Shown piece after piece: positions 1,603 through 30,383 of a stretch of 64,000 bases of DNA. Numbering within the stretch: position 1 is the first letter of the stretch; the number at the start of each line of letters is the position of its first letter. The notes below the pieces were generated by a model. The model saw nothing but the letters and a program-made list of their open reading frames with translations, ran no database searches and was not told the origin of the DNA. Where the stretch lies: positions 15,370,950 to 15,434,949 of the forward strand of contig NC_134029.1 of NCBI RefSeq assembly GCF_964204645.1, given 5' to 3'. This DNA comes from Tubulanus polymorphus (Eukaryota; Animalia; Nemertea). The position numbers and the translations under genes are program-made.

Positions 1603-1758
1603 AGTAGTAATAGGGAATATGTTGTTCTGGATCAAAGGTCGAACGGTCGTGTGAGTAAAAAATTAAAATAAATCCTCGCAAGCTCGAATTTATTTTGATT
1701 TTTTACTCACTCGACCATTCAACCTTTGATCTAGAACAACATATTCCCTATCACTCTT
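1603..1758. repeat. ~155 bp imperfect palindrome (terminal hairpin)
   Basis: AGTAGTAATAGGGAATATGTTGTTCTGGATCAAAGGT...AAATAAAT pairs with ATTTATTT...ACCTTTGATCTAGAACAACATATTCCCTATCACT around the loop CCTCGCAAGCTCGA. Confidence 0.92.
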
Positions 1759-2053
1759 AGATATTCATGTTTTAAAAGTGAGAGTAAAATGTTAACAGAA
1801 TAATCTAGAAAAATAAGATCGAATATAGATTTCGAATGATAAATTCTTATTTTTAACATAAAAAGTGTGAGTAAAGTGTGAGTGAAATAATTCATATTTA
1901 AAACAGTGAATATTTATATTTATATGAGTTAGATTCTAATTTTTAAGCATAAAAAGTGTGAGTAAAGTGTGAGAGAAATAATTCATATTTAAATCATTGA
2001 ATATTTATATTTATAGGTGTTAGATTCATTGTAATAAAAGTTTTGTTATTTAA

Positions 2054-2689
2054 ATGAAGAAAGAAGAAGAACCCAACTTCAAAATCGAAATCAATGAAAC
2101 AGATAAATTATTTTCACAGTTCAACATTAGAAATCATATTTCAGCAACAAATTTAGTGTCCGCAAGACATTATAAAATTGAAAATATTACTGTAATTAAT
2201 GAAGTATTATCAAATGAAACATATTTAATTACTGAACTAATTGATATTTTGATAATGGCGTTAAAAATCCTAAAATATTTAATACATTTTTAAATTTTAA
2301 AGGAACTTTAGATGAAAACATGATAAATATTCTTCAAACTCCTTTTAATGAAAGAAATGATGATTTAATACATTCAAAAGATTATAATGATTTGATTAAC
2401 TTAAGAATTGAAAAAAGACAATTATATTATTTTACTTTTAATAATAAACAAATTTTCTATTCATGAAAATTCATCAAATATTGGTATTCAATGTGATTCA
2501 GATAATGAAAAATTATTCAAAGATATTGCAGTTGAACGTAATTTAGATGATGAAATTAGAAAATTCAATCCTAATGAAAAAGTACATTGTGATTGTGGAG
2601 GTAAATATTTAAGATCACATAAATCAAAACATTATCAGACAATTAAACATATCGAATATGAAAAGAATAATAAATATGTATTGAAATAA
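2054..2689 (+). pseudogene. Frameshifted virus-like ORF with C-terminal zinc finger
   Basis: ORF pieces 2054-2293 and 2408-2689, ending KVHCDCGGKYLRSHKSKHYQTIKH. A related fragment lies at ~28930-29095. Confidence 0.55.
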
Positions 2690-2786
2690 GATTAAGCTGT
2701 ATGTTTAAAATATCATAACTCAAAAATGATAATTCAACTCTAAATATTTAATATTTTATAAACTGTCTAATTTTTCTCTTAAATAA

Positions 2787-2990
2787 ATGGAAGGTTTCAG
2801 CATTCCAATTGGGAAAAGTGATTTGAAACATTATTTAGTTGCTGGAGGGTTAATATTAGCTGCGCTATACTTTTATTATGAAAATATTTCAAAAGATTTG
2901 ATGAATGAAAATATTAAATTGAGCAAGAAATTAAAGAAGTTAAATGGAAATAGAAATAACAATAAAAAAGTTAATGATTTAAAAGAATGA
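2787..2990 (+). CDS. Small predicted membrane protein of segment A (67 aa)
   Basis: TAAATG start; hydrophobic YLVAGGLILAALYFYY followed by a basic, coiled-coil-like tail. Confidence 0.4.
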   Translation: MEGFSIPIGKSDLKHYLVAGGLILAALYFYYENISKDLMNENIKLSKKLKKLNGNRNNNKKVNDLKE

Positions 2991-3044
2991 GAGGATTAAA
3001 ACAGAATTTTAATTCAATTTATTTTATATATTTTAACTATAAAA

Positions 3045-3350
3045 ATGAGTGAAAATAAGGTATTAGAAATATTACACCTAATATATAAAAATCAACAGAA
3101 TATTAAATCAATTATTATGCTTTCAGGTTTATTTTCTTTTTTAATTTACTCATTGAAACAGTTGTTAGAATTCAATGATAAATGCAAAATTAGATACGCT
3201 GAACTAAAAGAAAATATAAATTATCTATCAGATCGAATAAATAATATTAAGTGTTGTGAAGTATGTAGTAAAAGGTATAAAAATTTAAAGAGTTTGAGGA
3301 ATCATAAATATATTCACGAGCTTAACAATAAACTGTATAATTCAAATTAA
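3045..3350 (+). CDS. Small C2H2 zinc-finger protein of segment A (101 aa)
   Basis: CEVCSKRYKNLKSLRNHKYIH C2H2 motif after a hydrophobic stretch. Confidence 0.5.
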   Translation: MSENKVLEILHLIYKNQQNIKSIIMLSGLFSFLIYSLKQLLEFNDKCKIRYAELKENINYLSDRINNIKCCEVCSKRYKNLKSLRNHKYIHELNNKLYNSN

Positions 3351-3479
3351 GTTTCTTAACGATATTTTAATAGAAATATCTATAATAAATGGAACAGCCG
3401 CAAACTATAAACATTACGCATTGTAAAACTTGTAGTAAACTACACGTTAAACAATATTTTAGAAATAATATTGAAACAC

Positions 3480-3496
3480 TAATAATAATAATAATG

Positions 3497-3550
<54 letters not shown>

Positions 3551-3955
3551 GTAATAGTAATAGTAATAGTAACATCAACAACAACAGCAACAGCAATAGC
3601 AATTGCAATTGCAATTGTAATGGCATTGTAATCGTAATTGTAATCGTAATTGAATTATGATTGTAATTGTAATTGAATTATAATTGTAATTGTAATTATA
3701 ATTATAATTATAATAATTATAATAATTATAATTATAATTATAATTATAATAATAATTATCATTGTCATTGTCATTGTCATTGTCATTGTCATTGCCATTG
3801 CCATTGCCATTGCCATTGCCATTGCCATTGCCATTGCCATTGCCATTGCCATTGCCATTGCCATTGCCATTGCCATTGCCATTGCCATTGCCATTGCCAT
3901 TACCATTACCATTACCATTATCATCATCATTATCATCATCATTATTATTATTATA
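3480..3955. repeat. Compound microsatellite (AAT)n/(AATTGT)n/(CATTGC)n/(CAT)n
   Basis: Seen directly in the sequence. Confidence 0.97.
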
Positions 3956-4105
3956 TTTATTTCTTATATACCGTGCTCCGTATACATTTCAGTGCGGTAT
4001 ACAAATAAACAAGGCTATAAAAACAAATTAGAACTGTCAATTAAAATATTGCCTAAAAAGAAAAGTTTTCAGCTCAAATTTAAAAGTAACTACATCACTG
4101 CAGGA

Positions 4106-4340
4106 TCACTGAGGCAGTTGGGTGTTAAATCCGACAGAATTTAGTAAAATCGTATTAGTGGATCGTAAGGATCTGGTAGGAGTATATAATGTGATTAGAT
4201 AACAAATGTAACTTGGTGGCAAATCATTCAATACTTTAAAAACCATGAGCAGAACTTTGAAATCAATGCGTATAGCGACTGTAAGCCAGTGTAGGTCAGC
4301 AAGTATTGGAGTAATCGAGACAAATTTTTTGATCTTGTGA
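4106..4340 (-). mobile_element. LINE (L2/CR1 group) ORF2 C-terminal remnant
   Basis: ITPILADLHWL.V..RIDFKVLLMVFKVLN.L.PSY....T.Y.P.RSLRS, the typical L2-clade ORF2 tail. Confidence 0.85.
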
Positions 4341-5057
4341 CAAGTCCAAGGCATATTGAGATTTTCGACACGCAGCAAATCGTTAATTTCCAAAGGTTGC
4401 TAGTAGTCATTGACACCATATAGATTAGGTTAGATATACATAATTTTTGGTCGACCGATGGCTGAATGAGTGGCCGATCTGCTTTTCCTATTTGTATGGA
4501 AATTCCAGTGTTGAATTATATCATCTAATTCCTCCTGTAAAAGGCCCTTCTGTGTTATTTCTACACAGAAAAATGGCCGCCATCGACAAAAATGGTGAAT
4601 ACAGATATAAGTTACTTTTCTGTGTGATTTTTTCGCGCAGAAAAATGGTCGTCATCGAGAAAAATGGTGAATATTGATATAAGCCATTTTTCTCTGTGAT
4701 TTTGCTCACACAGACAATTGATTTTATTTAGAATAATTATGTTTTTGGGAGCTACAAAAAAAAGATAAATATAATTGACGTCAGGATGCTGCCATACTAC
4801 ACACACATTATAGGCGTAAGGTTTATTCGTTTTTTCCTACTCGATCCCAACTGAACTCACGATTACGCATCATTGTTCTCATCATAACTGTATTCATTTT
4901 TACGTAAATCTTCTAATCTTGAGAAATTTGTTTGTGATAATGACCATACTTTTTCCTGTCCCCAATATTGCAAGTAAGGGTTTTCTGGTGATGAGGTACA
5001 TTTGTGTCCGTACATTTACCACGGTAATATTACTGTAATGTGCATTCCGTTTTTTAG

Positions 5058-5210
5058 ATGAGCGCAGATCAAAATGTTTTTTGTACGTTAACAACGGAAT
5101 TTGTAGCCACCAAACATTAGGATTACATAAAATGTCGGTGTGCTGTTGTAGTAAAACGGTTGGAAGAGGTTGGGGTGAATATTGTGAACCGTGTCCAGCA
5201 AGAGGAACAG
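5058..5210 (+). CDS. FBN: Fibrillin exon: TB (8-Cys) domain, first part (TB3-equivalent)
   Basis: tttttag acceptor and G|gtaata donor. Translates (D)ERRSKCFLYVNNGICSHQTLGLHKMSVCCCSKTVGRGWGEYCEPCP, with the CCC triplet and WG..CE.CP motif of TB domains. Confidence 0.93.
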
Positions 5211-5281
5211 GTAATATCTTGGGAAGGAAATGTTCTGTATGGCACCCTATCCTGGCAAATATATCGTACTCTTACAATTTA

Positions 5282-5964
5282 TTTGCAATGAAGAAGTCTC
5301 CAGTTTCTAGGCGCCATTTTGTGGCGGTCCCCCGGGGTCCCATTGTTGCGATAATTTGCGCACATTTATAAAACATAAGTTTAAATTGAATATCATATTT
5401 AAGCACCATTTTAAAGGAAATGAAATGCAGATATTTGCTGGCGATTCATGGATTTTTCGAATGCAACAATTGAGAACAGAGACGATGTGAACACCAAGGA
5501 CCGCATAACATAACCGCACGTTAAAGAAATCGTGATATCTATCAATTTTGAAATATCTAAGCATCTCTAAAAGCTATATTTCCAATTCTTTACAGAGGTT
5601 AAAGAGGGTTATTTGCAGATTGGGCATGGGTTGAATTTCTTTGAATATCTTTATTGACGACTGATCTGTAACCGCTTGAGTTTGAGACTATAACGCGCGG
5701 TTAAGATATGCGGTCCTTGGTTTCACATCGTCACTGTTCTCAATTGCTGCGTTCAAAAAATCCAAGAATCACCATCAAATATATGCATTTCATTTCCTTT
5801 AAAATGGTGTATAGATTAAGTTCATCGAGCTATGGACTGTAGAGCAATATGATATTCAACCTAAACTTATGTTTTAAAAATGAGCACAAATTATGGCAAC
5901 AATGGGGACCTCGAGGGACCGCCACAAAATAGCGCCTAGAAACAGGAAACTTCTTTATTGCAAA
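5282..5964. mobile_element. Foldback/MITE with ~300 bp imperfect inverted arms
   Basis: tttgcaatgaagaagt..ctaggcgccattttgtggcggtccc at the left end; its reverse complement gggaccgccacaaaatagcgcctag..acttctttattgcaaa at the right end. Confidence 0.85.
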
Positions 5965-6646
5965 CCCAACCACAATCATACAATGTTAATTTAAAGTGAG
6001 GAACTCGTGTCACCAGTTAGTCCGTTAAATGGCTTGTGTGCATGACAACTCTATCAACATCAGTTAATTATAACATTCATCTCAGTTGTAAGCCTCCGCG
6101 TACAACATTGGGCAAATCACCCCTCTGTTGGTGAACTCGTGTGGATCTGAAGGGTTCATATGTAGCAAGATCTTCTGGCAAGGAGAATTCCGAATAAACA
6201 CTATAGGCAATTAAATTGAAGTCGCTTGTTGACAGGAGGCGACAGTTTATTTACAGATGAAATACACAACCTGATTTAAATATTTGTTCTATACTGTAGC
6301 TGACTATTTGCTATCAAAACAGGCCCTTATGGGATTCATACGAAAGCTCAAGACAATTTATGAAAACGTCTTCAAAATTTCCATTAAAACTTTTGAGACA
6401 TGTGCAAAAGTGCTGTAAACCGTACATCAAAGTATTTTGAAAATTCCTACGAAAACTACATTATGTCTGTAGGCGGACAGACAGAGGTACGAAAATGAGC
6501 GCAATAGCCCACTGGGACAAAAGTGTCAAGTGAGCCAAAAAGTCATGACCTTTTTACCCCTAATACGAGGAGAGATTGTATGGAATTAATGGGTTGGTTT
6601 TGTTTGCAGATATTCTCTGAAATTTTTCGTCATTAAGAATACATTT

Positions 6647-7157
6647 AGGTAACATCAACTGGGACTGAGGCAACAGCATTCAATAAAAATCAATATCAAT
6701 TAAACATCCTTTGCTCTCACATCTTTAAAAGTATTATAATCGAAGTACCGGCACATTTCAAAAAACTACAAATACAGTCAATTCCGCAAAACAACATACG
6801 CCGGACGCGTTTGGTTTATCCGTCACGTGGTAGTTTTAGCTTCCCGGGGAAGTTTAAAGTTACCTGCTCCGAGATTCGCTCACTTTGAACTTCGCCGGGA
6901 AAGCCCAAACCATCACGTGACGGTTAATTCGTACGCGTCTGATTGATCCCTGGGTATACTCAGACTTACTCGGAGTAGATAATCGAACGCGCTAGTTGGT
7001 AACATCAACTGGTACTGAGGAAACTGCATTCAATAAAATCTATATCAATTAAGTATTGTCATTGCTCTCACATCTATAAAAGTATTATATTCGAGGTACC
7101 GGTCAGGCACATTTCACAAAACTACAAAACAGTTAATTTCGCAAAACAACATTTCCG
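6647..7157. repeat. ~150 bp direct repeats flanking a ~135 bp hairpin element
   Basis: ggtaacatcaactgg..actgagg at ~6648 and ~6998; palindrome acgcgt..ccgtcacgtg...cacgtgacgg..acgcgt at ~6806-6938. Confidence 0.75.
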
Positions 7158-7208
7158 CTGTTTCTCTGTAAAAAACGAGATTATAAATGACTCCATCTGT
7201 TTTGCTAG

Positions 7209-7268
7209 ATTCATTTAGAGAACTTTGTACTGGAGGGGACGGAATGTTGCCTTTTCCTGAACGAGAAG
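7209..7268 (+). CDS. FBN: Fibrillin exon: end of TB domain plus linker
   Basis: tttgctag acceptor and G|gtaggt donor; 60 nt, phase 1-1. (D)SFRELCTGGDGMLPFPERE supplies the 8th TB cysteine. Confidence 0.88.
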
Positions 7269-7361
7269 GTAGGTGTTGTAATTCTTTCACCAGCAGCACT
7301 TATCAGTAATTTTGTGATGAAAAGGGTATTTTCAAAGGTTTCCTTATAATTGTTTGTTTAG

Positions 7362-7487
7362 ACATAGATGAATGTAAAACCTTCCCTTCCTTGTGTTCAA
7401 ATGGAAGGTGCATCAATTCGATCCCTGGATTTGAATGCAAATGTAAACCCGGCTATGGTGTCGATGATAACGAAAGAAACTGCACAG
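7362..7487 (+). CDS. FBN: Fibrillin exon: cbEGF (FBN1 cbEGF11-like)
   Basis: 126 nt, AG/GT. DIDECKTFPSLCSNGRCINSIPGFECKCKPGYGVDDNERNCT. Confidence 0.96.
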
Positions 7488-7949
7488 GTAAAGACTTCTC
7501 ATAGAATTAACAGTTAATGACAATTTAAACATAACAAATGGTAAGTTAAGGGCCAATTTCAGCATGAATGTAAATAAGCAATTCTATCCCTCTGTCATTT
7601 TACCTATTTCAGTACATGAAAGTACATGTAACGATTCGAATTCGCACGCCATGTTTCAGTACACAAAAATACATAATGATTTTGATTCACAATGTCCCAA
7701 TCACCCTAGCCATTGGGGCTAAAATGCTTACAATATCATTTTAAAATAATTTTTGAATTTCCATGTACCTCTATCTCTCTAACTCTTTGTTGTTCCTATT
7801 CCGAGGTTAACTCAGTCCAAACTCTAATCTAACCGTACCATTAATCATAATCCGAAAAAAACTACATACACTGGGATAGATCGGGGACAAATGAATTTCA
7901 TTCAATTAATTTCTATCTTACATACACATGCGTAAATAACTTTTTACAG

Positions 7950-8075
7950 ATATTGATGAATGCACAATTTCGACTGAGGTCTGTGGAAATGGATCGTGTC
8001 TCAATATCCCTGGTTCATTTCGATGCAAATGCCATGCAGGATTTGAAAGTACTGCAATGATGCAAATGTGTATGG
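7950..8075 (+). CDS. FBN: Fibrillin exon: cbEGF (FBN1 cbEGF12-like)
   Basis: 126 nt, ttacag/gtaagc. [42 protein letters not shown] keeps the characteristic ES..MM..CM ending. Confidence 0.96.
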
Positions 8076-8831: not shown

Positions 8832-9126
8832 AGTGGGTAAATCACTGGACTACTACTGGATTTTTTTTTCGTTTGTATTCGAATCCCAATATTGCGATTC
8901 TGAGTGTCAACGTACTCACATAGGCTAACTTGCAGAAATCATCATACAGTCACGTACAGGTAACAACAGCGTTTTAAGTATTAAGTGAGTACGACAAGCC
9001 TATCATGCCTATGTACTACAAACACAACTGTTTCCCTCTCGTCGGCCCTACAGTGGTGTTACTATAACTGGTGCCATTATAACATGGATAGGATTTGGTC
9101 AGGACTAGCCTAAAGTCTAATTCAGT
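8832..9126 (+). mobile_element. tRNA-derived SINE-like repeat; inverted copy at ~22903-23198
   Basis: The two copies are similar over ~290 bp. The head reads GTGGCTCAGTGGGTAAATCACTGGACT...GGTTTCGAATCCC (A-box/B-box like). Confidence 0.65.
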
Positions 9127-10177
9127 GTATGTACTAATTCACTCGATAGGCCTATTTTTAAAAACAATACAGTGAAGTATTCACACGCAGAAAGGCTGTT
9201 TGATTTGAGCCATGTGATTAAATTTGGCCAGGCCTTCTCTGACCTGCTGACATTAATAGTCAAACCTAGATCCAAAACGTACATGTCGTCACGGCTTGTA
9301 TACCAGAAATCATTGTAGGGATGTAAATTTTGCTGTTCGTAGGTTTGGTATACCGATTTCTCCATTCTTGACTGATAAGTGTACGGTACAACTGTACGCA
9401 TTATACAATTGTTCCAATGGGAATAGGGCCTATTGATTGGGCTTATTATTTCCTGCTTTAGAATACTGAAATAAGCCTAACGTTCATTCAAATATCCAAC
9501 ATCGGTGAAAGTTTGATTTCTGTACACATGTACGGTAGGTTTTCATGTTGAATGAATATTTTGCAGTTCAAAAGGGTATGATGCTGATTCCGATGTCAAA
9601 CGCATGAAGTTAGATGGTCAAGGACAGTCAACACTAAGATATCTCTCTTCGACCGATACACCATAGCACCATAGAAGATCTGATTCTTTCAACTCATGCA
9701 AAGTGATTCAACACGATCGACATTACACTGGAATAGGTTTGCAGTAACTGACGGTTCATTTCATTTAGTCCTATGTACTTTTTAGCCAATTTGGATTTGA
9801 TTGTAATTGAAACTCTGGAACTGTTAACACAAGACAAGTGGGACAAGTTGAAAAAACACAAGTTATGCTTGATTCTCATGTTCAAATTTAATTCAAATTC
9901 AAATTTATTTTATTACATCATATTTACAAAGCATATCATTGGTTCATACAGTAATAAAAATTAGGACAGAACAAATATTATTACAGAATTTTCAAAAAGG
10001 CAATGAATTTCTATAACTAAATGAACATTATTTTTCTAATAACTTAGATCAAGAGTGGCTCTCCCATTTATTAGGAAACACACACAACTAGTGGAATAGG
10101 TTTGATTTACACACATGTTGCAGGTATCAATTGTTTATCACTATATAATTTGTAATCCATAAAAGCCAAAATCAACG

Positions 10178-11213
10178 TCAGCCGGAAACCCAGACCAAAT
10201 CAATTCATAATTTATTGATTGGATCTACACTACAATATATGTATTTATTCAAATATTTCAATAAAAACATTGACTTCTTAAATCTATTCAAAATCATAAT
10301 ACATTCTTGTCTGTAAATTCACTCAATCTATCGACTCAGCAGGTGCTTAAGATAAGTTCTTAATAGGACAGATCCATTTTTAAGCATAGTGATAATACAG
10401 TATCATGATGTTTGAATGCCAAAATAAATGCCTGGTCAAATAAATGCATAGACGGACGCCGGGCGCCGGGCGCTTTCAGTTTCCACCATAGAAATGTCAT
10501 TGGTTACATTATGGTTTCACGAGTTTTAAACCATTAAAAAAATGACACCTAAATCGAAAAAATAATTTTTTCAGCAGACATTGGTACCGAGACCTAATTT
10601 ATAAGAAATTTTTCAAGTTTTTTTCTCGCAAAAATTAAACAATTAAATTTAATTTGATCTTATAATATAAGATTAGAAAATTATGAGGTTTGATTCAGCC
10701 GGAAACCCAGACCAAATCAATTCATAATTTATTGATTGGATCTACACTACAATATATGTATTTATTCAAATATTTCAATAAAAACATTGACTTCTTAAAT
10801 CTATTCAAAATCATAATACATTCTTGTCTGTAAATTCACTCAATCTATCGACTCAGCAGGTGCTTAAGATAAGTTCTTAATAGGACAGATCCATTTTTAA
10901 GCATAGTGATAATACAGTATCATGATGTTTGAATGCCAAAATAAATGCCTGGTCAAATATATGCATAGACGGACGCCGGGCGCCGAGCGCTTTCAGTTTC
11001 CACCATAGAAATGTCATTGGTTACATTATGGTTTCACGAGTTTTAAACCATTAAAAAAATGACACCTAAATCGAAAAAATAATTTTTTCAGCAGACATTG
11101 GTACCGAGACCTAATTTATAAGAAATTTTTCAAGTTCTTTTCTCGCAAAAATTAAACAATTAAATTTAATTTGATCTTATAATATAAGATTAGAAAATTA
11201 TGAGGTTTGATTC
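10178..11213 (+). repeat. Near-perfect tandem duplication, period 517 bp
   Basis: tcagccggaaacccagacc at 10178 and 10695. Confidence 0.95.
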
Positions 11214-14200: not shown

Positions 14201-14261
14201 CCTGAAGAACCATATAAGTTACCTACTTAAACCATACATCACTTCAAGTATCTTGAAAAGG

Positions 14262-15298
14262 GCTGCTAACCACACATTGCAACCGCGATTCTATCGCCAA
14301 CGGTTAAGGACCTAGGAGCAAAAATCGTTGTTTTCACAGGCCCCCGGGTGGCAGTTGTACGAACTATTTATGCAGGATGGCATATTACACACATGTCTTT
14401 GTACTTATACCAAGTTTTGTGATTTTCACAATAAACAGACCGCATTACATGCGAAAAATGGATGCTGGAATCGATTTTTCAAAATTTTCGCCCCCTAGTG
14501 GTTAAAATGGGAACTAATCATATGAGGGGTTCGTTTCGTTTAGTAACCAGGTACATGTGTATCAATTTTTATAGAAATCCATTGATACCCTTAGTCGATA
14601 TAGATTTAAATGCATATTCCAGCGTCTTATAGGTGGCGCTACTGGCGAACCATATAAGCTACATAGTTATACCATACATCAATACTAGCGTCTTCGCTAG
14701 TGCTACTGGTCACTCGTCGCAGGCACAATTCTATCTCCACCGGTTAAGGAGCTAGGAGCAAAAATCTCTTTGAAAAATTGCTGCTAACCACACATTGCAA
14801 TCGCGATTCTATCGCCAACGGTTAAGGACCTAGGAGCAAAAATCGTTGTTTTCACAGGCCCCCGGGTGGCAGTTGTACGAACTATTTATGCAGGATGGCA
14901 TATTACACACATGTCTTTGTACTTATACCAAGTTTTGTGATTTTCACAATAAACAGACCGCATTACATGCGAAAAATGGATGCTGGAATCGATTTTTCAA
15001 AATTTTCGCCCCCTAGTGGTTAAAATGGGAACTAATCATATGAGGGGTTCGTTTCGTTTAGTAACCAGGTACATGTGTATCAATTTTTATAGAAATCCAT
15101 TGATACCCTTAGTCGATATAGATTTAAATGCATATTCCAGCGTCTTATAGGTGGCGCTACTGGCGAACCATATAAGCTACATAGTTATACCATACATCAA
15201 TACTAGCGTCTTCGCTAGTGCTACTGGTCACTCGTCGCAGGCACAATTCTATCTCCACCGGTTAAGGAGCTAGGAGCAAAAATCTCTTTGAAAAATTT
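14262..15298 (+). repeat. Near-perfect tandem duplication, period 518 bp
   Basis: gctgctaaccacacattgcaa at 14262 and 14780. Confidence 0.95.
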
Positions 15299-16082
15299 GG
15301 TTGCCCATTTTCGAGCCCGTAGAGCCCAAACGGTTAATCGCAGATAGGGCGTGCCATTGACTTTTTTAGCCTCCAGGCTGTTATGAACAACTTTCGTGCT
15401 CGGCCGAAGCTGAAAACTCAAAGACAAAAATTTTTCTCACACAGTAACTTTTCGATGTCAGAATTTTCAAAAGTAAAACGCCCCCTGGTGGGTGAACGGG
15501 GACCCCAATCAAAGATCCCTTCGACTTACCTCAAGGTACCTGTGATCCGTACATCTCACGAAAGTTTCAAGTAAATCTGTCAAGAAATATCGTAATGCTA
15601 ACAGAATATAGCCATCCAGGCTCTCGCGTATAGATACCGTAGCTGCATTCATTAGCTCTATCCAGGGAAGTTACTGCAAGGATGCTATTGCTTGTATATG
15701 TGGCACAAAAATTCCTCAGTTGCGTTCACTCAAGACTGACCCCATTCAGTGCGCCACATATATATAAAGATACTAAAAAACTACAGATCTAGTACACACG
15801 CTCTACTACTGCCTATAGGGACACTGACACAAACAGACGCACTGACGCGCTGTGGGAATGACACGTAGGCAATACACATACGTAGATGGATACTGTTTGA
15901 ATCAGGCTTAAATTTCGATGTTTAGAGGCTCACAGTGAGTAAACAGTGCAATTCTGATTAATATCACGTACAGTAATTGTCAATGCAGTGTAGTACTTGT
16001 GATACAGAATGGTTTCACCGACAGTGAAAGTAAGTTGCAGTTGTTTATATCCTTTCAGTAAGATCCAGTGTGAAAAAGAATA

Positions 16083-17259
16083 TAATAATAATAATAATAA
16101 TAATAATAGTAATAATAATAGTGATAATAATAGTGATAATAGTAGTAGTGATAATAGTAGTAGTGGTAATAGTGGTAGTGGTAATAGTGGTAGTGGTAAT
16201 AGTGGTAGTGGTAATAGTGGTAGTGGTAGTAGTGGTAGTGGTAGTAGTGGTAGTGGTAGTAGTGGTAGTGGTAGTAGTGGTAGTGGTAGTAGTGGTAGTG
16301 GTAGTAGTGGTAGTGGCGGTAGTGGTAGTGGCGGTAGTGGTAGTGGCGGTAGTGGTAGTGGCGGTAGTGGTAGTGGCGGTAGTGGTAGTGGCGGTAGTGG
16401 TAGTGGCGGTAGTGGTAGTGGCGGTAGTGGTAGTGGCGGTAGTGGTAGTGGCGGTAGTGGTAGTGGCGGTAGTGGTAGTGGCGGTAGTGGTAGTGGCGGT
16501 AGTGGTAGTGGCGGTAGTGGTAGTGGCGGTAGTGGTAGTGGCGGTAGTGGTAGTGGCGGTAGTGGTAGTGGCGGTAGTGGTAGTGGCGGTAGTGGTAGTG
16601 GCGGTAGTGGTAGTGGCGGTAGTGGTAGTGGCGGTAGTGGTAGTGGCGGTAGTGGTAGTGGCGGTAGTGGTAGTGGCGGTAGTGGTAGTGGCGGTAGTGG
16701 TAGTGGCGGTAGTGGTAGTGGCGGTAGTGGTAGTGGCGGTAGTGGTAGTGGCGGTAGTGGTAGTGGCGGTAGTGGTAGTGGCGGTAGTGGTAGTGGCGGT
16801 AGTGGTAGTGGCGGTAGTGGTAGTGGCGGTAGTGGTAGTGGCGGTAGTGGTAGTGGCGGTAGTGGTAGTGGCGGTAGTGGTAGTGGCGGTAGTGGTAGTG
16901 GCGGTAGTGGTAGTGGCGGTAGTGGTAGTGGCGGTAGTGGTAGTGGCGGTAGTGGTAGTGGCGGTAGTGGTAGTGGCGGTAGTGGTAGTGGCGGTAGTGG
17001 TAGTGGCGGTAGTGGTAGTGGCGGTAGTGGTAGTGGCGGTAGTGGTAGTGGCGGTAGTGGTAGTGGCGGTAGTGGTAGTAGCGGTAGTGGTAGTAGCGGT
17101 AGTGGTAGTAGCGGTAGTGGTAGTAGCGGTAGTGGTAGTAGCGGTAGTGGTAGTAGCGGTAGTGGTAGTAGCGGTAGTGGTAGTAGTAGTAGTGGTAGTA
17201 GTAGTAGTGGTAGTAGTAGTAGTGGTAGTAGTAATAATAGTAATAATAATAATAATAAT
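16083..17259. repeat. 15-bp minisatellite (AGTGGTAGTGGCGGT)n grading into (AAT)n at both ends
   Basis: Seen directly in the sequence. Confidence 0.97.
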
Positions 17260-20200
17260 CAGCAGGAATACAATAGGGTTTCTGCGAAGGCAGCAGAAAC
17301 CCTAATAAATATAGCTGCAAAGCAGCGATAACGGGTTTTCTGAGCAGGCGTGCTATTCATAGTTTGAAAAGTGGATAATAGAAATATATCAATACGGGAC
17401 ACGCATTTGACGTGTCAAGTCACACCAATGCGGTTTAACATAACATAATTTATAGTTATAGTCAAATTGGGGGTTACTCGGGTCGTTTAGTTGTCTGCGG
17501 AGTCGAGTAGATTGGTTACCCGTCTGTAACATTGGTTACGGAAACGACTCGTCAGCTTGATGAGTTGTATGTATTATGATTGTGCGCCACCTGCATCTTC
17601 CGAAATAATGTTCATATAATTATTTGAAGGGAGGATTGAAATCAATTATCAACGTACATCTGAATATGTAATAGTCCTTAGTAACTTTCTGTTGCAGAGG
17701 GCATAGAAAAGATTTTGAAATTATTTAATTAAAATATAAATTTTATTCACGAAAAATAAACTATAATGGTCAGTACAAATTGAAAATTCATAGTGTATTT
17801 TTAAGAACAAGCTTACATAGCTTACAGAATACATCACGTACATTTGAACTTTATAAGTGATGGGTAAAAATCAACGTGTGACAGAAAAAAATGTAGTTAA
17901 TTATTTAACAATATCGAAATATGTGCTCTCTTTTTAAACTAATGGAGTGATACGCAATTAATCACATGGCCTTTATTAAAAGATAGAACATACAAGTTGG
18001 ATATTTATAAGTCGAAACATGTGAACAGAAACTAAAACTTTGATGTCAGTGACCAGTATCGAATTACACAACGACAATTGGCTTTAAACTCAACAAACAT
18101 TATTAAAGAATGTTTCAAACAAAATGCTTTATATAACGACGTGAATAAACTTGTTTTACAAAACAAGAAAGTACATTTTGAACTTTTGAATGGTCGAATC
18201 CCATTTATTCACAGTAACCTGTGATGTGGCGATCCTCGGAGCCATCATTCTCGATGACGTCACTAACAAGTGGTCACGGCCGTCGCGTGCACTCATTTCT
18301 TTGAAAATCTAGCTTCCTCGCGGAGCGGGACCTGGTGACGCTGCGCCCCGACCCCTTCGCGCTGAGAAATATCTTATTCCCAGTCAGCAAAGACAGGTTC
18401 TAAAGATCATAGAGTGCATCGCTGGAGGGTTTCCGATCCAATTTGAATTGGTGCGGTGGCGCTCTCAATGCGGAAGTTTTTGTGATTTTTTCAGTCGGCG
18501 ACGGACGTTTATCGTTGTAAGTGATGGATATGTAAAAAAATGCAGGGAAACCTATCTCAATTTGTTTTTAGCGATGCAGCGGAACAAATAAAGAACATTT
18601 TGATATATAACATGACTATAGTACACTATCCCTGCTGGAATAATAAGCTCCACTCGACAAACTCGTTCCCGTGCATTTTTATCTCTCTGTTTCACACACA
18701 CAGCCCCTCTACCATCAATGCCTAACCCCTGTTCGACCAACTGTGGGCGTTTTCCTTTGAAACATAAGCCTAATTGTAAAAGATAAGCATTAATCTATGT
18801 TAATGCTGCATCTTTATCATGAAACCTAAGAAAGATTATTCTATTATTTGGTATTTTAGGCCTATGCAAATTTTCTGTCCACTACCACGTGGAAATAAGA
18901 CCCACCCAGTCAAAATTGTGCATCACGCTGTGACGAAGAAATTTGTTCTAGGCTATAAATTTAGGACTCAAACGAATCTTTTCCTCAACAAAGCCGCTTT
19001 TAGTTTGATGCAAAATGAGATTTGCTTTTAAAATGTGTAACTAGGCCTAATCAAAAGGATATTTCAAAAGCAAACTTTGCCGGGCCAAGAGCCATATTGA
19101 ATTCAATTTTTCCGAACCATTATGCCTCTTTCATCATAACATTATTTATCCTATTTCAAGATCATAGGCCTACAAGTAGAGAGAGGGCCTACGTTGGGTT
19201 CAAATCGGAATTTTAAGATTTATTTCATTTAATTCCAGGTTTTCACTGTAGATTATCAAAGACATGTGGCGTTGTGGGAGTTCATAGTTGTTTGATAATC
19301 CATCATTTGTAAGTGTAAGGCTATTTGAGGGATTCGAAACCGACATTTTGTAAATTTTGTAGCTTTATTACGTTTAATTCCAGATCACGATTGGTAGAAC
19401 ACTATATCCGTGTTGACTTAATTCCAGATGTTTATCATGACACGTTTCATTTTGGGGCGAGTCAGCGAGTTGGTATGCTGTCGGCAGAAGTAGTTTGATA
19501 ATTCGTTTCATGTAAGTAAACAGCTATTTGAAGGATTCGAAACCGAAATCTGTATTGTGAATTTTTTAGTTGTATTTTGTTTGATTCTAGGTGAATAGGT
19601 GAATAGGACATGATTCATTCTGGGAGTTTGTCCGCGAGTTTGTATACTGTCAAATGAAGTTTCTTCGTCAATTTGTCGTATGTAAGTATCAATCTATAGG
19701 TTATATAGGCCCTATTAGGGGTTCGATACAGAAATTTGGTGAATTCCTCAGATTTATTATAATTTATTCCAGGTTGTTATCAGAAAAATATGTACTTTAT
19801 TTCATAGGTTGGTCTTTGATTGAAAACTAAAAATGGATGATAGTTCTAAATTTGATGTTGATTCACATGACCAATCTAGTAGGCCTAAGTATGGCTCACT
19901 CGTCTTTTAGAATAAGAGACCTATTGCTTTAATCCTTCAATTCAAGTTGCTATACAACCTTTTATACAGATATTTACCTTATCAATATAAACATGTATTT
20001 GCCATTAGCCATACAATTCAGTAAAACTTTTCCCGTCCAGATTTTGAAACATCATTTGACTCAATTTTTCCTCCGAGAAAATTGCTTTAGCTCATTCCAA
20101 TGTTCGCAGTAAAAGTGAATGTAGCATGTATGATTCCCATCCATCAATTTTGTCTTGTTTCGTATTTTTAGCGAAAATCTCGAAAAAGTCTGACGTCGAG

Positions 20201-22454: not shown

Positions 22455-22567
22455 ATAATAATGATAACAATCAACAGAATTACAAAAGGGTTTTCGACGA
22501 AAGTCAGAAAACCCTAATAATAATCAGCAGGAATACAATAGGGTTTCTGCGAAGGCAGCAGAAACCC

Positions 22568-22637
<70 letters not shown>

Positions 22638-22730
22638 CAGCAGGAATACAATAGGGTTTCTGCGAAGGCAGCAGAAATCACGCGAATTTCAATAGGGTTT
22701 TTTGTGAAGAAACAGAAAACCCCAATTAGG
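22455..22730 (+). repeat. Stack of hairpin termini (TAGGGTTTCTGC...GCAGAAACCCTA family) interleaved with (AAT)n
   Basis: Four variants at ~22487, 22539, 22652 and 22693; an identical one at ~17273. Confidence 0.8.
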
Positions 22731-24207
22731 AGATCAATTTTTGAGGAATACTAAATGCTGGAGAATTCTGTTTATTCCCGAACCACTTTGTCCAATGCAG
22801 CCTTTTTGAAAGAAAATCGAATAATTCAGATTTCGATCTTAATGTTTTTGCGTCTGAATACTTCACTGTATTGTTTTAATGATATCGAGTGAATAGTGAA
22901 TAGACTGAATTAGACTTTAGGCTAGTCCTGACCAAATCCTATCATTGTGATAATGGTACCAGTTATAGTAACATCAGTTTAGGGCCGACGTGAGGGAAAA
23001 AGTTGTGTTTGTAGTGCGTAGGCAGGGTAGGCTTATCGTACTCACTTAGCACTTAAGTTGTACGTGACTGTACGGTGATTTCCACAGGTTAACCGTATGT
23101 GAGAACGTTGAGCCTCTGCCTTGCAATATTGGGATTCGAAACCAAATGAAAAAAGAGTAGTCCAGCAGTAGTCCAGTGATTTACCCACTGAGCCACAGAA
23201 CGTAACTGCAGAATGAGGAAAGTTGATTGACAGATAGCCTCACCTAACCCAAACCCTATTCTTTCACGCATGCGTGTATGTAGATTATAGGAACTCACGT
23301 ACGGCGTTTGTAGGGATGTCACGTACGGTTGATCTGTGGAGATTACCGTACAGTCACGTACGGGTAACATCTTCGTACTTAAAATGGTATTGGCTACATT
23401 AATAGGCCCATAGACAAAAATATACCGGTAGGATTTCTTAGCTTCCACACTTCACAGCCGAAACAACGGACCAACCAGTAAGTCCGGATACGCACCAACC
23501 AGCACAGGCCTAACACTGGTTGTCAACTGTGTGTTCCGTAGTAGGCTATCGTAATACTTTTCTGTCGTTTATTTTCTCTCTGCGTCGAACTCAATTCTAG
23601 TGGCCACCCGCGACTCAACGACGCTTTTGGTTACATGAACAGATCAGCAATATACTTACATGAAATAAACGGAACAAGAAATCATGTATATAAAAGAGTT
23701 AACAAAGAAATTCCCATAAACCTGTTGGACTCGCAAACGCCAGACTCGTAAACTCTTGGACACTGACCCGTTGAGCAATAAATTCATAAAATTGACTTTT
23801 GAATTGATTGTCGAGAAGAGAAATTTGTCAAAATTCCCATGCAGTACCTGGAGAGTGAAGTGAGCCGAAGGATATCATATGGATTACACTGGTAACAGCG
23901 GTAAAAGGAAGCCTTTGCACTTTAAACAAAAACTGTTTTGAATAGGGGGGGGGGATAATAATGACCACGCGAATCTCAATAGAGTTTTCCGAAAGTAAAC
24001 AGAAAACCGTAATTATCAGGCTCCAAAACAGATCGCTAATGCAAACGACAATAACATGACTTCAAATAATCAGAAGCACGCTCGAATTTATTTTTCTACT
24101 CACTCGACCTCTCAACCTTTAGCCTGAACCCCTATTATCCCTATTACTCTTAAAATATTAATCTAATAACTTCTAAAATCAATTTTAATAAAAAATATGT
24201 TATTAAA

Positions 24208-24564
24208 ATGGAGAGTAGTAAACAAATACACAGTGAGAACAACAAATCATTTCTAGATAGAATAAAAGATATCACAAATATAAAATCTGTAGATTATAAA
24301 TTTAAGAATTTAAATGAACTAACAATTCATAAGAAATATTTAATTACAAATATTGATACAGTTACTAACAAATATGGAGATAAATTAGTTATTCACTTAG
24401 AATATGAAGGATTGAAAGGAAATACATATAAATTCAGAAGATATTTACCAGATAGATTTCATAGATTATCAAGTGAAGATTTAGAAGAATTATGTTCAAG
24501 TGATTTCTATTTCATATATAAGGGTAAGAATGAAAAAGGGCACCATGAAATAGATTTCGAATAA
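24208..24564 (+). CDS. 118 aa intact ORF resembling small Polinton/virus-associated (possibly ssDNA-binding) proteins
   Basis: Pattern K.L.EL....KY.I......T.KYG..L.I.L....F..YLP.RF, recalled from small proteins of Polinton-like elements. Not database verified. Confidence 0.55.
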   Translation: MESSKQIHSENNKSFLDRIKDITNIKSVDYKFKNLNELTIHKKYLITNIDTVTNKYGDKLVIHLEYEGLKGNTYKFRRYLPDRFHRLSSEDLEELCSSDFYFIYKGKNEKGHHEIDFE

Positions 24565-24578
24565 AATATGTAAAATAA

Positions 24579-25285
24579 ATGGTAGAATTAAAAGAATATA
24601 GAATATTTGTTTATTCTAGAAAACTGTTAAATTCTAAATCTCATAATTTACTAGTACAATTAGATAGAGAATTTAAGAATTGTGTTGATTTAAAATTAGT
24701 AAATGTAAGTTTCTGTAATTCTTTTTATAATGTATCGGATAAAACTTTCGAACATAGAGGGTTTATGATTTTTATGAGAAATAAAAATAAATGGTATCAT
24801 CTATTTTTAAAACCAGGATTATAGAAGAGCTCGGTTGAAAATCGGGGGTACTTCTGAATTTGAAAGTAAATTTAATAAAATTGACAGTTCTAATAAAATA
24901 AGAATAAAGATAGCTAATGATCAACATAAATTTATGGTAAACAAATCAGTAGCTAAAATGTTAGGAATTAAACCGCATGTTGTTATTGGAAACGCAGACG
25001 GTAGCTCAAATATAATACCTTTTACTCATTTTTATATTTATTGCAATTTAATTGATCCAACAAAAACATTTAAAGCAACTAAAGACATATATTAAATATT
25101 TTACCATTAAAAATGTTAAACAATTTGGAACTCAAATGAATTATAATTTAGCTGAGTGTGATTTTAAACCTTGTATTTCACGATTTACTAATTTCAAATT
25201 AGAAATAAGAAATCATAATGGATACTTAATTGATTTAAATAATTTTCCTGTAATTTATGAATTAGTTATAAGATGTAAAGAATAA
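24579..25285 (+). pseudogene. Disrupted minor capsid (penton, single jelly-roll) gene, Polinton/adintovirus type
   Basis: Three ORF pieces join into ~230 aa: N-terminal I.V.S...F/L.V.L......L.L....F.NSFYNV, middle AKMLG..FYIYCNLI, C-terminal FKLEIRNHNGYLIDLNNFPVIYELVI. Confidence 0.65.
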
Positions 25286-26189
25286 TTTTTTCACTATATA
25301 AATGAATATAACTGTTGGACCGAGTATATGTTTTGGATTTGATTTTAAACGTGAGAAAGAAATGAAATTTGATATTAATGATATAATTACACATATAAAA
25401 ATATTGCATTTTCTAATGAATCAACATTTGAATATAAAACAACAATAAATAAAGAAACTTTTAATGTAGAAAAGATTACTGATTTAATTAGAGAGTCTTT
25501 AAGATTTTATGAATTAAATGAAGATTTTATTATCGATGATATTAAAAACATATTATCTAAAATATATGATAATCATAAAAGTAGTAATGAAATAAATGTT
25601 GAAATAATTATAACTAAGTTAACTAAATATTTTGAATATCATTATATTATACGCCTTGAGTATCAGTATTCACGCTAGAAATGATGAAAAACAACCAATT
25701 TTATTTAGCGAAATAAACGCGCACCTGCTGATCCACCTCATTACCATATTCAATGCTATGACGTCATGACTGAGGTCAAAGTGGGTCAACACAAATTATA
25801 CATAACGAGATTTTGAGGGGTTTCGTCTTTAAAGCCCATAACTACCGGACAAAGGGTCGGAACTCGACGTGATAAAGTTCTTCCGATGCAAATAGCAATG
25901 AATTTTCACATGTGTAATTTTGATCGGTTAAAGATGCTGCATAAAAAACGTGCTCAATTAAATCGGATTTTTGACACTTTTTGGTGAATTTCTCAAAAAT
26001 TATGAAACCCACGTATTTCAACTTAGTACACCGTACAGAAAAATAAACAACGAAATATATTTTTGTTTAATCCGTTCAATTCGCCCACTATTAGTGAAAT
26101 TACAGGCTATTTAAATGCGATCAAAACAACGATCCCAGAAGTTTTTTGTACATTAAATTTTGTGTAGGATGAAAGTGGAAATTATTAAT

Positions 26190-26410
26190 TATAATGACAA
26201 CGATGATGATGATAATAATGATAATGATAATAGTAATAATAATTATAATGATGATAACGATGGTGACGATAATGACGACAATGACGATAATGACAATGAC
26301 AATGACGGCGACCACGACGTGATAACAGTGATAATGGAAATAATTAAAAATAATAATTATAATGCTAGTAAATAATAATGATAAATATGATAATAATCAT
26401 AACAATAATG
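26190..26410. repeat. Degenerate (GAT/AAT/GAC)n microsatellite
   Basis: Seen directly in the sequence. Confidence 0.9.
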
Positions 26411-27226
26411 ATAGTTAAAAAAAGCCTCAAAATCCTGACCTGTCAATGCATGCATGGTGCAGAGCCCCGGCTTGTGCCCTATATCTATATACCTTCGCAC
26501 ACGGGATGTAAGAGTATTACACTATGTATACTAATTTCGCTTAGAAGGTATAGATCCATGCATTTTTTCACCTGACCAATGGAATCATCAGTTGTTAAAA
26601 TGTATGTTTTGGCTCTTCGTATTCATGGAATCAGGTCAACAATCAGTTCATGTACTAACTTCGGGAATTGGTAGGAAATTATTGTGTGGTTATTTTAGGA
26701 ATTCCTAAGCCGAATCGGTCCACCCAAATTTCTTGCTACACAGTTCAGGTGTTGTGACAAGAATTCACACGTTGGATAACTATAATTTCTCAGTTTCCAA
26801 CAAAATTTAAACGTTTTCATGATACTTCTATTTGTCTCCCAGCATACACAAAGACGTAGTTTAAGCGTAGAAAAATACATCTTGCTATTAAATCTTATTA
26901 AGGTCTTTTATTAAGGATATATGTAACACTTGATGACGTATTTGCAAGATGTCATACCGTAAGGTACCGCTGCAGCAAAGAATATTCGAACATGTATTTT
27001 TAAGTAAGTCAATAGATTCTCATATTCTTGAGTTGCAGTATGCTGACGTATATGTTGCAGTATACCGACCGTCCGACCGGATTTCCCGATATAAAAAAAA
27101 AACGTTCGATAGCTGCATTAATGCCCAACTACATGTCATTTTGTGATTTAATTGAAAAACGGTTGTACCAATGAAGTATCCAACGGAATATGCAGACCTC
27201 TCAATTTGTCTAAACGTTACTTTTAG

Positions 27227-27352
27227 ATATCGATGAATGTGGCAGGGATCCATCACTTTGTCTAGGAGGAAGTTGCCAGAATACAGTGGGCAGTTTTAAA
27301 TGTGTCTGCCTCGATGGTCATGAGGTTACACCAAATGGAAGAGGATGCAAAG
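27227..27352 (+). CDS. FBN: Fibrillin exon: cbEGF (FBN1 cbEGF13-like)
   Basis: 126 nt, ttttag/gtgatc. DIDECGRDPSLCLGGSCQNTVGSFKCVCLDGHEVTPNGRGCK. Confidence 0.95.
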
Positions 27353-27555
27353 GTGATCATATTATATAGATTCTTCGATATTTTCTTATGCCAGGAGGAG
27401 CACAATAATCGGTCATACATATATTCTAAATTTGTTAAAAATGTTAAAAGCCGCCTCATTTAAACTTTCAAAGGGATCTTATAGTTTCCAAACTCCATGA
27501 TTATTTCTGCCTTCCTACTCCCTCACGTGCAATCAGCCTTAGCAGCAAATCTCAC

Positions 27556-29150
27556 AAAATAAAAAATAAATTCTCGCAAGCTCGAATTTATTTCTATTTT
27601 ATTCACTCAACCTTTCAACCTTCGATCTGAAACTAATATTATACACTTATTTTTATATCTATGTGTACTAAATAGAAAAGAATCTAACTTTTAAAAAAAG
27701 TGTTAATAAAATGATAAAATGTTTAAATATGGAAAGTGAGAACAATGTGAGTAAAATATTAAAATATTCATACTTTTTAATAAAAAGGTGTTAATGAAAT
27801 ATTGATACTTTGAAATGTAATATTTATATATATATTTTCTATCACAACTGCAGTTAACTATTTCATCAGATTTATATTTTCTCAATTTATCAATTTCATC
27901 ATAAAACCAAATTGAATACATTTTTCTTCAATCATGTTTTAATTTTCTAAATCGCATTGTATCGATTTATCTTCATAAGTTTTTTTATCTGAATTATTGT
28001 TTACATATGGTTTTTATTTTCAGTTTGCATAATTCATTCATTAAAAGCTCTGCGAAAATATAATGTTTAAATTCTTTGAAAACGAGATCCTTTAAAATAT
28101 TGTTTAATTTCATATATTAATTCACTAAGTTCTAATGAATAAGTCAAAAACGTATTGAATATTTTAACATTATTCTCATCAACTAATTTCATTATTCTAA
28201 ATATTTCGCCATCTAATAGTAAATCTTTAATGTTGTTAATCATATAAATTTTCTTCATTATGTTTGATTTCCATTAAATCTAATAAACTCTTTAATTTAC
28301 AACAATCAATTTAATAAATCATCGTTTGAATTCTTAACATTTATAAAGCAAAAAATTTAATTAAAAAAGAAAAAAAACAAAATTCATTACTCCTCGTTTT
28401 AACTTCTTTTTTAATCTAAAAAATTCATTTAACTTTTACTCCTCATTTCAACCTCATTTTTAATTTCAAAATTCATTAAATTTATACTCCTCATTTTTAC
28501 CTCGTTTTTAATTGAAAAGAATTCATTACATTTTTACACCTCGTTTTGTCCTCATTTTCAATTTGAATATCATTTATATTTTTACTCCCCATTTTGACCT
28601 CATTTTTAATTTAAAAAAAAAAGAAAAACATTTTTACTTCTCATTTTACCATCCTTTTTAAGTTTTTAAAAAGCAAAAATTAGACTAATTTTTTTATCAA
28701 TGTATTCTTTTTTACAATAAGAACAATAATAATGATTTTTATTAACATCATTTTTTCTATTAGGAACTCACTCACTCCCAAAGGAAAACATATTAAAAGT
28801 GGTGGCGAATCGCCCTCTCGCCCTCTGATCTGAAACCCACATTTCCCCATTACTGATAATATCTATCTTAATAAATCAAATATTACGTATTTAAACGTAT
28901 TTAATAACTGAACGAATAGATACTTTCGATAATGGAGTCAAAGAATTGAAAAACGACAATTATATCATTTCAATTATGACAACAAACACATTTTTTATAA
29001 TAATAATTCATCAAATATTGATAATAATAATTCTTATAAAGATACTGGAATTCAATGTAGATAATGAATTTTCTAAATTTAATCCTAAAGTGATGTTTAT
29101 GGCAAAAACCAAAGTTCTGTCAGTTTATCAATCATTAATTATCTTGTAAC
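27556..29150. mobile_element. Virus-like segment C (degenerate)
   Basis: Hairpin centre and right arm at 27556-27640; broken minus-strand ORF ~27700-28270 (ELSELIYEIKQYFKGS...VNCSCDRKY). Degenerate ~45 bp repeats at 28380-28660, a second hairpin arm at 28804-28854, then a + strand fragment related to 2400-2580. Confidence 0.55.
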
Positions 29151-29358
29151 GCATGAGCTTGTTGAATGCTTATATATTATATCTTTATTTTTTTTCGTTA
29201 AGTTAGACAATATTTTTCTGAGAAAGTTTTGTCTTTATCATTGTTTTTCTTTATCATTTCATTCGTTGATGTTATGAAATGAATAATCGTTTCGAATTTT
29301 AGTTTACCATATTGCACTTTATCATATATTTTGACTATTAGTGTTGTTCTGATTTTAG

Positions 29359-29484
29359 ATGTAAATGAATGTTCTTCTACGAGTGGGATATGTTCTAATG
29401 GGCGATGTGAAAACTTTATGGGTGGATTTCAGTGCTTCTGTCAGAGTGGATACAAACCAAACCCAACCAAAACTGCATGTACAG
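29359..29484 (+). CDS. FBN: Fibrillin exon: cbEGF (FBN1 cbEGF14-like)
   Basis: 126 nt, ttttag/gtaacc. DVNECSSTSGICSNGRCENFMGGFQCFCQSGYKPNPTKTACT. Confidence 0.95.
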
Positions 29485-30383
29485 GTAACCGTTGAAAAAA
29501 TACCATTCTTAAAATATTATGATATTATGTATATTCAGGGTTTTCTGAGGTCGAGAGGGCGAGCTCCACTTAAATTCTCTACCTCTGACTTCAAATCATA
29601 ATATCCCTATTACTTTTTTCCATGGAAATATAGATCAATTGAAAAATGATTGCAATTTTTAGTTTAAAACGTGCTAGAAAGATAAACAAGTTTTAAAATA
29701 TATGAAAAATGTTTAAGTAAAATCATTTAGGTCTTTTAACTGAAAATATAGAAAAGTAGTAAAATAATTAAGTTTTATCTAAACGTAACAAGTAATTAAC
29801 CAGTTGTTAATAGTAGATTTTTGAAAACATTGAAAAATAATAAAATAATCTATATTACTTAAAATAACAAGCACATGAGTTGATAAAGAATAGATTTTTG
29901 AATAGATTTTTTTTCAAAAAAAAATAGTAAAATAGTTAAAAATGATAAAAGGCGATGAGTAAATGATAAGGAAAATAGTGAAAAATAAGCTTAATCATCA
30001 AATGATATTGCGTGTAAATATTGCATCGATTATTCCGGTGCGTTGTCCGATACTTGGTATCCCTGCGGGAATACACGGTTACAATTGCTAGTGAATTCAA
30101 GAAATTCCGCGTTATTTGTCTTCAAACGGCAGAAGTTTTGCAAAAGGGCAACACTGAATAAAAACAGTGATCCGCTGGAAGGCGCAGTCAATCACTGAAT
30201 TACTCTATCACTTGAATTTCCTTTCAACTCTGTCTCCGTAAAGTACTTTTGGTTCCACGTGCATTTATCTAATCACTGCTCCGAACAAACGCCTATAATA
30301 AATAACTGTTCATGTTTTTCCGTGATAGAAATCAAGTTCCGTAAATTGGAGTATTTCAAATTAAATCGTGTGTTTGTTTTTAG

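Follow-up and report, generated by a model that had tools for sequence, protein, structure and literature searches.

The genome of the nemertean Tubulanus polymorphus (RefSeq assembly GCF_964204645.1) contains, on contig NC_134029.1, a long palindrome followed by small open reading frames (ORFs), and the loop and right arm of this palindrome recur farther along the same contig. The question raised by this locus is what kind of element has such an end. The stretch analyzed here, referred to as the window, covers 64,000 nucleotides (positions 15,370,950 to 15,434,949; coordinates below count from its first letter). We conclude, with good confidence, that the window pieces derive from the ends of a many-copy Polinton/Maverick family of the adintovirus type and have since decayed, and that the palindrome likely makes up the initial 150 bp of the terminal repeat of this family.

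The palindrome and the tip of the first remnant

In the leftmost remnant (E1, Table 1), 62 of the 68 pairs of the palindrome arms are matched (91% complementary), and the folding energy of -56.7 kcal/mol (z -16.7) is not reached by any of 200 shuffled sequences. The palindrome of ~155 bp that a preliminary description had placed at 1603-1758 is therefore real. It is directly preceded by AGT, such that the tip reads AGTAGT at 1603; this is the (AGT)2 form of the (AG)3 or (AGT)2 motif with which Polintons/Mavericks end. The pattern of the core stem-loop is found twice in the window, once at the start of a metagenome relative (L002, see below) and not in shuffled sequences, and an 18-nt loop motif occurs three times in the window (at 1678, 24076 and 27576) and in none of 100 shuffles. 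The three loops have the same orientation, which at n = 3 is a weak observation. Between the direct repeats behind the hairpin, 1774-1936 and 1861-2027 are 80% identical. An Rfam scan of positions 1-34000 gave no matches.

Metagenome relatives with a similar end

The gene behind the end of remnant E2 encodes a predicted single-stranded DNA-binding protein (SSB), and a metagenome scan with the SSB alignment reduced 402 candidate stretches to two loci, L001 and L002. L001 (5,888 bp) starts with a perfect 16-bp stem, the sequence of which differs from that of the window (z -3.2), followed by a homolog of the window right arm that ends in the inverted tip motif. With three window arms compared in turn, none of 2000 shuffles reaches the score of this homolog, and for the two window arms tested it is the best match in the entire contig. 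The gene order is end, SSB (62% identical to the E2 protein), a 1365-aa family-B polymerase starting 4 nt behind the SSB gene, and an HNH/endonuclease VII-like gene. On part of the protein (residues from 2150-3400), the polymerase matches Pfam DNA_pol_B_2 with 28.2 bits (cut-off 25.8), while its full length and its C-terminal part have no polymerase match in Pfam and no tblastn match in phages. The polymerase region, 728-4825 of L001, also includes C2H2 fingers at the N-terminus and an insert resembling endonuclease VII. L001 ends in an 11-bp tandem array, no second end being found, and all three assemblies with this polymerase are 5.9-7.2 kb long.

L002, of which 10,460 of 11,483 bp were read, has the 8-bp stem of the core stem-loop at its start, again with a 14-nt spacing but with another loop (0/200 shuffles). 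Behind this end follow the SSB gene, a penton gene, a 126-aa gene (as in E2), further ORFs, a putative major capsid protein (MCP), an integrase with rve and chromo domains (rve, E 1.5e-10) and an A32 ATPase (Pox_A32, E 4.6e-11). The 415-aa MCP candidate may, by its resemblance, be a double jelly-roll protein. Between the ATPase gene and the next gene, L002 contains three AT-rich repeats of 107-108 bp with an internal inverted repeat (9096-9412).

According to the record, the L002 penton and a near-identical MCP are also present on a contig of 16,883 bp, and an SSB near-identical to that of L002 is on record on a contig of 998 bp. This SSB may belong to a collapsed terminal inverted repeat (TIR), and the simplest reading of the two contigs would be one Polinton of ~17-18 kb, with hairpin and SSB inside a TIR of ~1 kb. 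In that case, the loci L001 and L002 would represent one end each of elements of this kind.

The hairpin pattern has no match in the viral contigs and none in the metagenome contigs, and protein scans of the viral contigs gave no locus (one scan confirmed two stretches). A weak 36-aa match in a bacterial metagenome-assembled genome (L003, genome-contig scan) was treated as chance and not used.

The assignment to the Polintons is made because the tip is AGTAGT and because relatives with a similar end carry a protein-primed family-B polymerase (pPolB; L001) or rve and A32 genes (L002). In the preliminary description, a hairpin-telomere element distinct from Polintons had been proposed as one of two possibilities, and a hairpin inside an ordinary Polinton TIR had been named as the case speaking against it; our conclusion corresponds to the latter case.

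Read depth and copy number

The raw genomic reads (12% of one run bearing the species label; the depth figures concern the E1 region) show a depth of 1.7-11 in the non-repeat flank bins and of 970 at the loop. In the bin containing the AGTAGT tip the depth reaches 297, up from 7-11, and it is 329-486 across 2085-2609 and 120-237 across 2715-3239, the loop bin being 2-3 times deeper than the cargo bins. From the depth over loop and cargo, tens to hundreds of related, diverged copies exist. Such a number is ordinary, since coral genomes may carry >1,600 polintovirus regions each (10.1101/2023.10.06.561300). Of the 7,879 reads aligned to the E1 region, only 177 are identical at a level of at least 99%, and 4,406 fall below 90%; these figures indicate an old, diverse family of which E1 is a decayed copy. 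At two of the six arm mismatches the pairing letter is present in most reads (244/258 and 226/245), which shows that part of the imperfection of E1 is decay.

Loose read ends are seen at 1656 (296), 1665 (274, left-arm-like) and 1696 (295), pointing to copies with the core stem-loop and different outer arms, and in 83 reads a short right arm is fused directly to the internal repeats. Taken together, this indicates that the constant part is an AT-rich stem-loop of ~20 bp, about 60-90 nt from the tip; the long fold-back is therefore confined to a subset of the family. In many reads the loop is preceded by sequence resembling the left arm, and for this reason a one-off head-to-head fusion of two ends, considered earlier, is unlikely. 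Read ends do not pile up at molecule ends, which for sheared short reads is uninformative. Upstream of E1, a short high-copy host repeat is present at 510-614 and 1035-1139 (depth 150-200, compared with flanks below 11).

Other end copies in the window

Profile searching finds homologs of the E1 arm at 24098-24148, 27602-27634, 28804-28854, 29566-29614 and 32820-32870, and none in the reversed window; the profile was made from six of the arm stretches, and 27602-27634 is the sole independent match. The recurrence described earlier is thereby confirmed, for loop and arm at 24076 and 27556 and for the arm at 28804 and ~29540-29613, with 32820-32870 as an additional copy, but the long hairpin exists in the first copy alone. 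Among the six end copies that were folded, it is found only at 1606, whereas 27550-27610 folds as a stem of ~22 bp (z -4.6), 29520-29614 forms a degenerate hairpin (z -2.5), and 24040-24151, 28770-28854 and 32820-32900 fold no better than chance. To speak of a hairpin-terminated family was thus an overstatement, as one of six copies has the long hairpin and the majority of the cargo ORFs are disrupted; the earlier view that the elements are virus-like, encode capsid proteins and combine a fold-back end with differing cargo is borne out.

The ends other than E1 begin with AGT(A/G)AT, without the doubled AGT. Those at 28854 and 32820 represent a second subtype, which has the same tip and lacks a fold-back, and the E3b end is 81% identical to 32815-32872. 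The right arm of E2 retains the inverted end motif. Over 591 nt, E6 is 62% identical to 27801-28365 at the DNA level. Copies starting at the loop had been taken to suggest integration at the hairpin apex; the copy at 24076 does start there, but that at 27556 starts about 20 nt to the left of the loop, and the support for such integration is this single copy.

Table 1. Features of the window: end remnants, genes behind the ends and host exons
Feature	Coordinates	Strand	Description
Outer tip of E1	1603..1608	+	AGTAGT, probable; Polinton-type end motif; from sequence and rise in read depth
Imperfect palindrome, 150 bp	1606..1755		Arms 1606-1673 and 1688-1755, 68 nt each; loop 14 nt
Conserved core stem-loop	1666..1695		AT-rich stem 8 bp, spacer 14 nt
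Direct repeats, about three	1774..2027	+	~87-91 bp each, behind hairpin
Broken accessory gene (ORF X)	2054..2689	+	C-terminal Cys/His motif; pieces in different frames
ORF, 67 aa	2787..2990	+	No Pfam match
ORF, 101 aa	3045..3350	+	Weak C2H2 zinc-finger match (Pfam E 5e-4, below curated cut-off)
Gene start	3389..3478	+	Like N-terminus of L001 HNH/endonuclease VII-like ORF; truncated by microsatellites
Remnant E2	24076..24151	+	Loop and right arm; left arm gone
SSB gene, intact, 118 aa	24208..24564	+	OB-fold protein, predicted SSB of phi29/PRD1 type; from model and L001 ORF match
Minor capsid (penton) gene, broken	24579..25285	+	Three frames, middle partly lost
Next gene of penton module, broken	25302..25678	+	17/24 aa identical to L002 gene behind penton
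Remnant E3a	27556..27640	+	Short-stem hairpin and right arm
ORF X relative, decayed	27744..28330	-	Oriented away from 28854 end
AT-rich direct repeats	28380..28760	-
Remnant E3b	28804..28854	-	Bare end motif, no long hairpin; second end subtype
ORF X fragment, additional	28854..29088	+
Remnant E4	29520..29614	.	Degenerate hairpin; inverted end motif at its end
Remnant E5	32820..33013	+	Bare end motif, then broken SSB gene
Remnant E6	50660..51395	+	ORF X-type cargo; end motif suggestive only, missed by profile
Host exons	5060-5210, 7362-7490, 7949-8075, 27226-27352, 29358-29487, 30383-30507, 50507-50633	+

Genes behind the ends

Behind the end, E2, E5, L001 and L002 each have an SSB gene, which in E5 is broken. 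The intact E2 protein has 20 relatives at E <= 0.001, and its structure model (pLDDT 76) matches SSBs of small podoviruses (E 6e-4). In an Atlas search it is placed with unnamed eukaryotic clusters (0.94) and, as a lead only, with Phi29_Phage_SSB (0.83); the Pfam, PDB-sequence and PHROG scans gave no SSB name, and word-based homolog searches with the SSB and with the penton piece found nothing. It is predicted that this gene encodes an SSB of the protein-primed-virus type. The E5 remnant is 74% identical over 23 aa to the L002 SSB.

The penton pieces are 45-62% identical to an intact 254-aa ORF of L002, the model of which matches the minor capsid protein of mavirus (E 1e-6), the penton of a MELD virus (E 3e-6) and minor capsid proteins of giant viruses, with 39 matches at E <= 0.001. 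The earlier call of a penton-like gene is upheld by this identity and by the model matches, and these pieces represent, through a low-confidence model, the single jelly-roll minor capsid protein of Polintons/Mavericks. An Atlas search with the window penton piece gave scores below 0.9 throughout.

Relatives of ORF X, all unnamed and broken, are present at 27744-28252 (-), 28854-29088 (+) and 50820-51395. The similarity of the gene start at 3389 to the L001 HNH/endonuclease VII-like ORF is weak (pairwise E 1e-4 over 17 aa). At 3460-3960 the right part of E1 is replaced by nested AAT/GCCATT microsatellites, which show mirror symmetry. All eight ORF starts considered (2054, 2787, 3045, 3389, 24208, 24579, 25302 and 32901) lie within (T/A)AAATG, as do those of the L002 genes, and this start-site signature is common to the window elements and L002.

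Points against the Polinton assignment

Several observations weigh against the assignment proposed here. As already stated in the preliminary description for polymerase and integrase, no pPolB, MCP or integrase fragment is found in the window, the sole ATPase match there has an E of 0.23, and the remnants are all one-ended, with no target site duplication (TSD) partner and no paired right end found for them. The relatives come from other samples, and their protein identity to the window is only 33-62%. The window-end profile did not detect the L001 end, the L002 stem alone folds at chance level (z -1.0), and the right arm of L002 is unlike those of the window, its score being reached by 247-1355 of 2000 shuffles. 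The 415-aa ORF has no Pfam or PHROG match, no adenain/protease gene was recognized among the 13 ORFs scanned of the incomplete L002, and no single contig among those seen has end, pPolB and integrase together. In addition, the penton model of the 254-aa ORF is of low confidence (pLDDT 52), and the matches of the SSB model to PRD1 P12 and other OB folds in the PDB are weak (E >= 0.013).

Comparison with known systems

Terminal fold-backs are a property of parvovirus inverted terminal repeats and of poxvirus hairpin telomeres, where they are imperfect, ~150 nt long and followed by short repeats. The E1 end shares this length and the repeats, but no Rep/NS1 or resolvase is seen, and the relatives bear integrase and pPolB. 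Resolvase, protelomerase and HUH Rep genes were not recognized in 14 ORF pieces of the window or in 15 ORFs of L001 and L002, both being partial sets.

In vertebrate Mavericks, the elements have (AGT)2 or (AG)3 ends, 6-bp TSDs and TIRs of 46-1,447 bp, with a mean length of 16.9 kb (Barreat and Katzourakis 2021, PMC8097293); the words "palindrom" and "hairpin" are absent from the part of that paper available to us. The gene set of adintoviruses includes PolB, rve, FtsK, hexon, penton and adenain (Starrett et al. 2021, PMC8502044), and "SSB" does not occur in the available part of this text. To the extent covered by these two sources, the nemertean family has in common with them the (AGT)2 tip, the penton (in the window), the pPolB, rve and A32/FtsK genes (in the relatives), the mostly decayed state of genomic copies and a probable size of about 17 kb, and it differs by the fold-back at the tip and the SSB-like gene directly behind the end. 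No adenain protease was recognized in 10.4 kb of L002 and no TSD was observed.

A parallel for the fold-back concerns the endogenous virophages and subtype 4 Polinton-like viruses (PLVs) of Halocafeteria seosinensis, which have terminal palindromes inside TIRs next to TSDs, and for which a hairpin-priming model is proposed (10.64898/2026.07.28.741278). There, the palindrome likewise lies within the TIR and occupies the extreme end of an integrated double jelly-roll element; it measures 52 nt in the pictured subtype, among protist elements that are mainly non-pPolB, compared with 150 nt in an animal family with a pPolB-bearing relative. In Streptomyces telomeres, terminal palindromes coexist with terminal-protein priming, the protein binding the folded single strand (PMC4513846); this is bacterial end patching by Tap/Tpg, and only an analogy is drawn, no homology being implied. 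In another preprint (10.64898/2026.10.13.758929), palindromic repeats are marked in one figure legend, and replicase modules are described as moving on their own. The coral study mentioned above still cites the 2006 model of Polinton replication. We found no paper describing hairpins at the ends of animal Polintons, or SSB genes within them; supplements of bioRxiv preprints may list such features.

Possible role of the fold-back

The tip motif, the stem-loop, the fold-back, the gene linkage and the multiplicity are directly seen. We know of no direct demonstration of how Polinton replication starts. From what is known of the family, replication would be protein-primed from the AGT tip and proceed with strand displacement, the SSB would coat the displaced strand, and integration would be carried out by the rve integrase of the element. 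It is possible that the displaced strand folds its tip back, and that, by template switching, the short conserved stem-loop grows into an inverted duplicate of the entire tip. The long arms may have arisen by such fold-back copying and may have been homogenized likewise. Because the stem is kept while its letters change, the AT-rich core stem-loop may well act in cis as an origin or as a recognition signal, the long arms being a subfamily-specific fold-back; we lean slightly toward this view. This stem-loop, kept across relatives directly before the SSB gene in a polymerase-bearing lineage, is of interest as a concrete cis-signal, and the adjoining PRD1/phi29-type SSB as a concrete protein, to be tested. 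Terminal palindromes would thereby be extended from protist virophages and PLVs to a polymerase-bearing animal lineage.

A more far-reaching reading, an animal Polinton lineage with parvovirus-like fold-back ends and SSB, using hybrid protein- and self-priming and possibly being a two-segment virus, is unlikely. Slightly less likely still is that the fold-back is a working primer as in parvoviruses, the tip hairpin priming itself after excision, alone or with protein priming. This would agree with the extension of the palindrome to the tip, with the inverted end motif retained in the right arms of L001 and E2, with the pairing letters in the reads, by which the arms of the family are more symmetric than those of E1, and with the model in print for the Halocafeteria elements; however, the polymerase linked to the end belongs to the protein-primed family, and that preprint ties palindromes mainly to non-pPolB elements. 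Moreover, the 28854 and 32820 ends have the same tip without a hairpin, no Rep/HUH or resolvase is recognized in L001 or L002, and the three loops, few as they are, show no flip/flop.

It is improbable that the family is a segmented (bipartite) Polinton, with a polymerase segment of ~6-7 kb and a capsid/integrase segment, each having the common hairpin end and SSB. Both L001 and L002 do begin at the end, the assemblies with the L001 polymerase are uniformly short, and the window ends lead to different cargo; if true, the two segments would share one end. Nevertheless, the L002 module is also on the 16,883-bp contig, which is long enough for a polymerase, assemblies commonly break at tandem arrays such as the one in which L001 stops, and both contigs are accounted for if the SSB lies inside the TIR.

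That the 150-bp hairpin is an independent miniature inverted-repeat transposable element near viral ORFs by chance, with a TSD of its own, is very improbable and largely refuted: the loop bin is deeper than the cargo and the unit of left arm, loop and right arm has the end motif on both sides, but depth stays high through the cargo, the 83 fused reads and the SSB and penton genes link the end to internal sequence, no TSD surrounds 1606-1755, and homologous internal sequence continues past the right arm.

Host gene and neighboring repeats

The Polinton remnants of the window would be truncated fossils, left by deletion and later insertions, without evident effect on the host gene. This gene is of the animal fibrillin type, with one TB domain and six calcium-binding EGF (cbEGF) exons that have AG..GT borders, as found in a motif scan that may miss exons. 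The intronic placement of the elements described earlier is supported by these exons; E1 sits upstream of the first exon found, and its intronic position is an extrapolation.

Where E6 ends, a long and strongly AT-skewed array of 31-bp tandem repeats starts (51260-64000), interrupted by other repeats, with inverted repeats at 56145-57181. The 15-bp tandem array at 16009-17331 can be read as a Gly/Ser ORF of 440 aa that contains runs of Asn, and is probably a minisatellite. An ORF at 4106-4354 (-) resembles the C-terminal tail of ORF2 of a long interspersed nuclear element. Near-perfect tandem duplications are present at 10178-10994 and 14256-15073, with periods of 517 and 518 bp.

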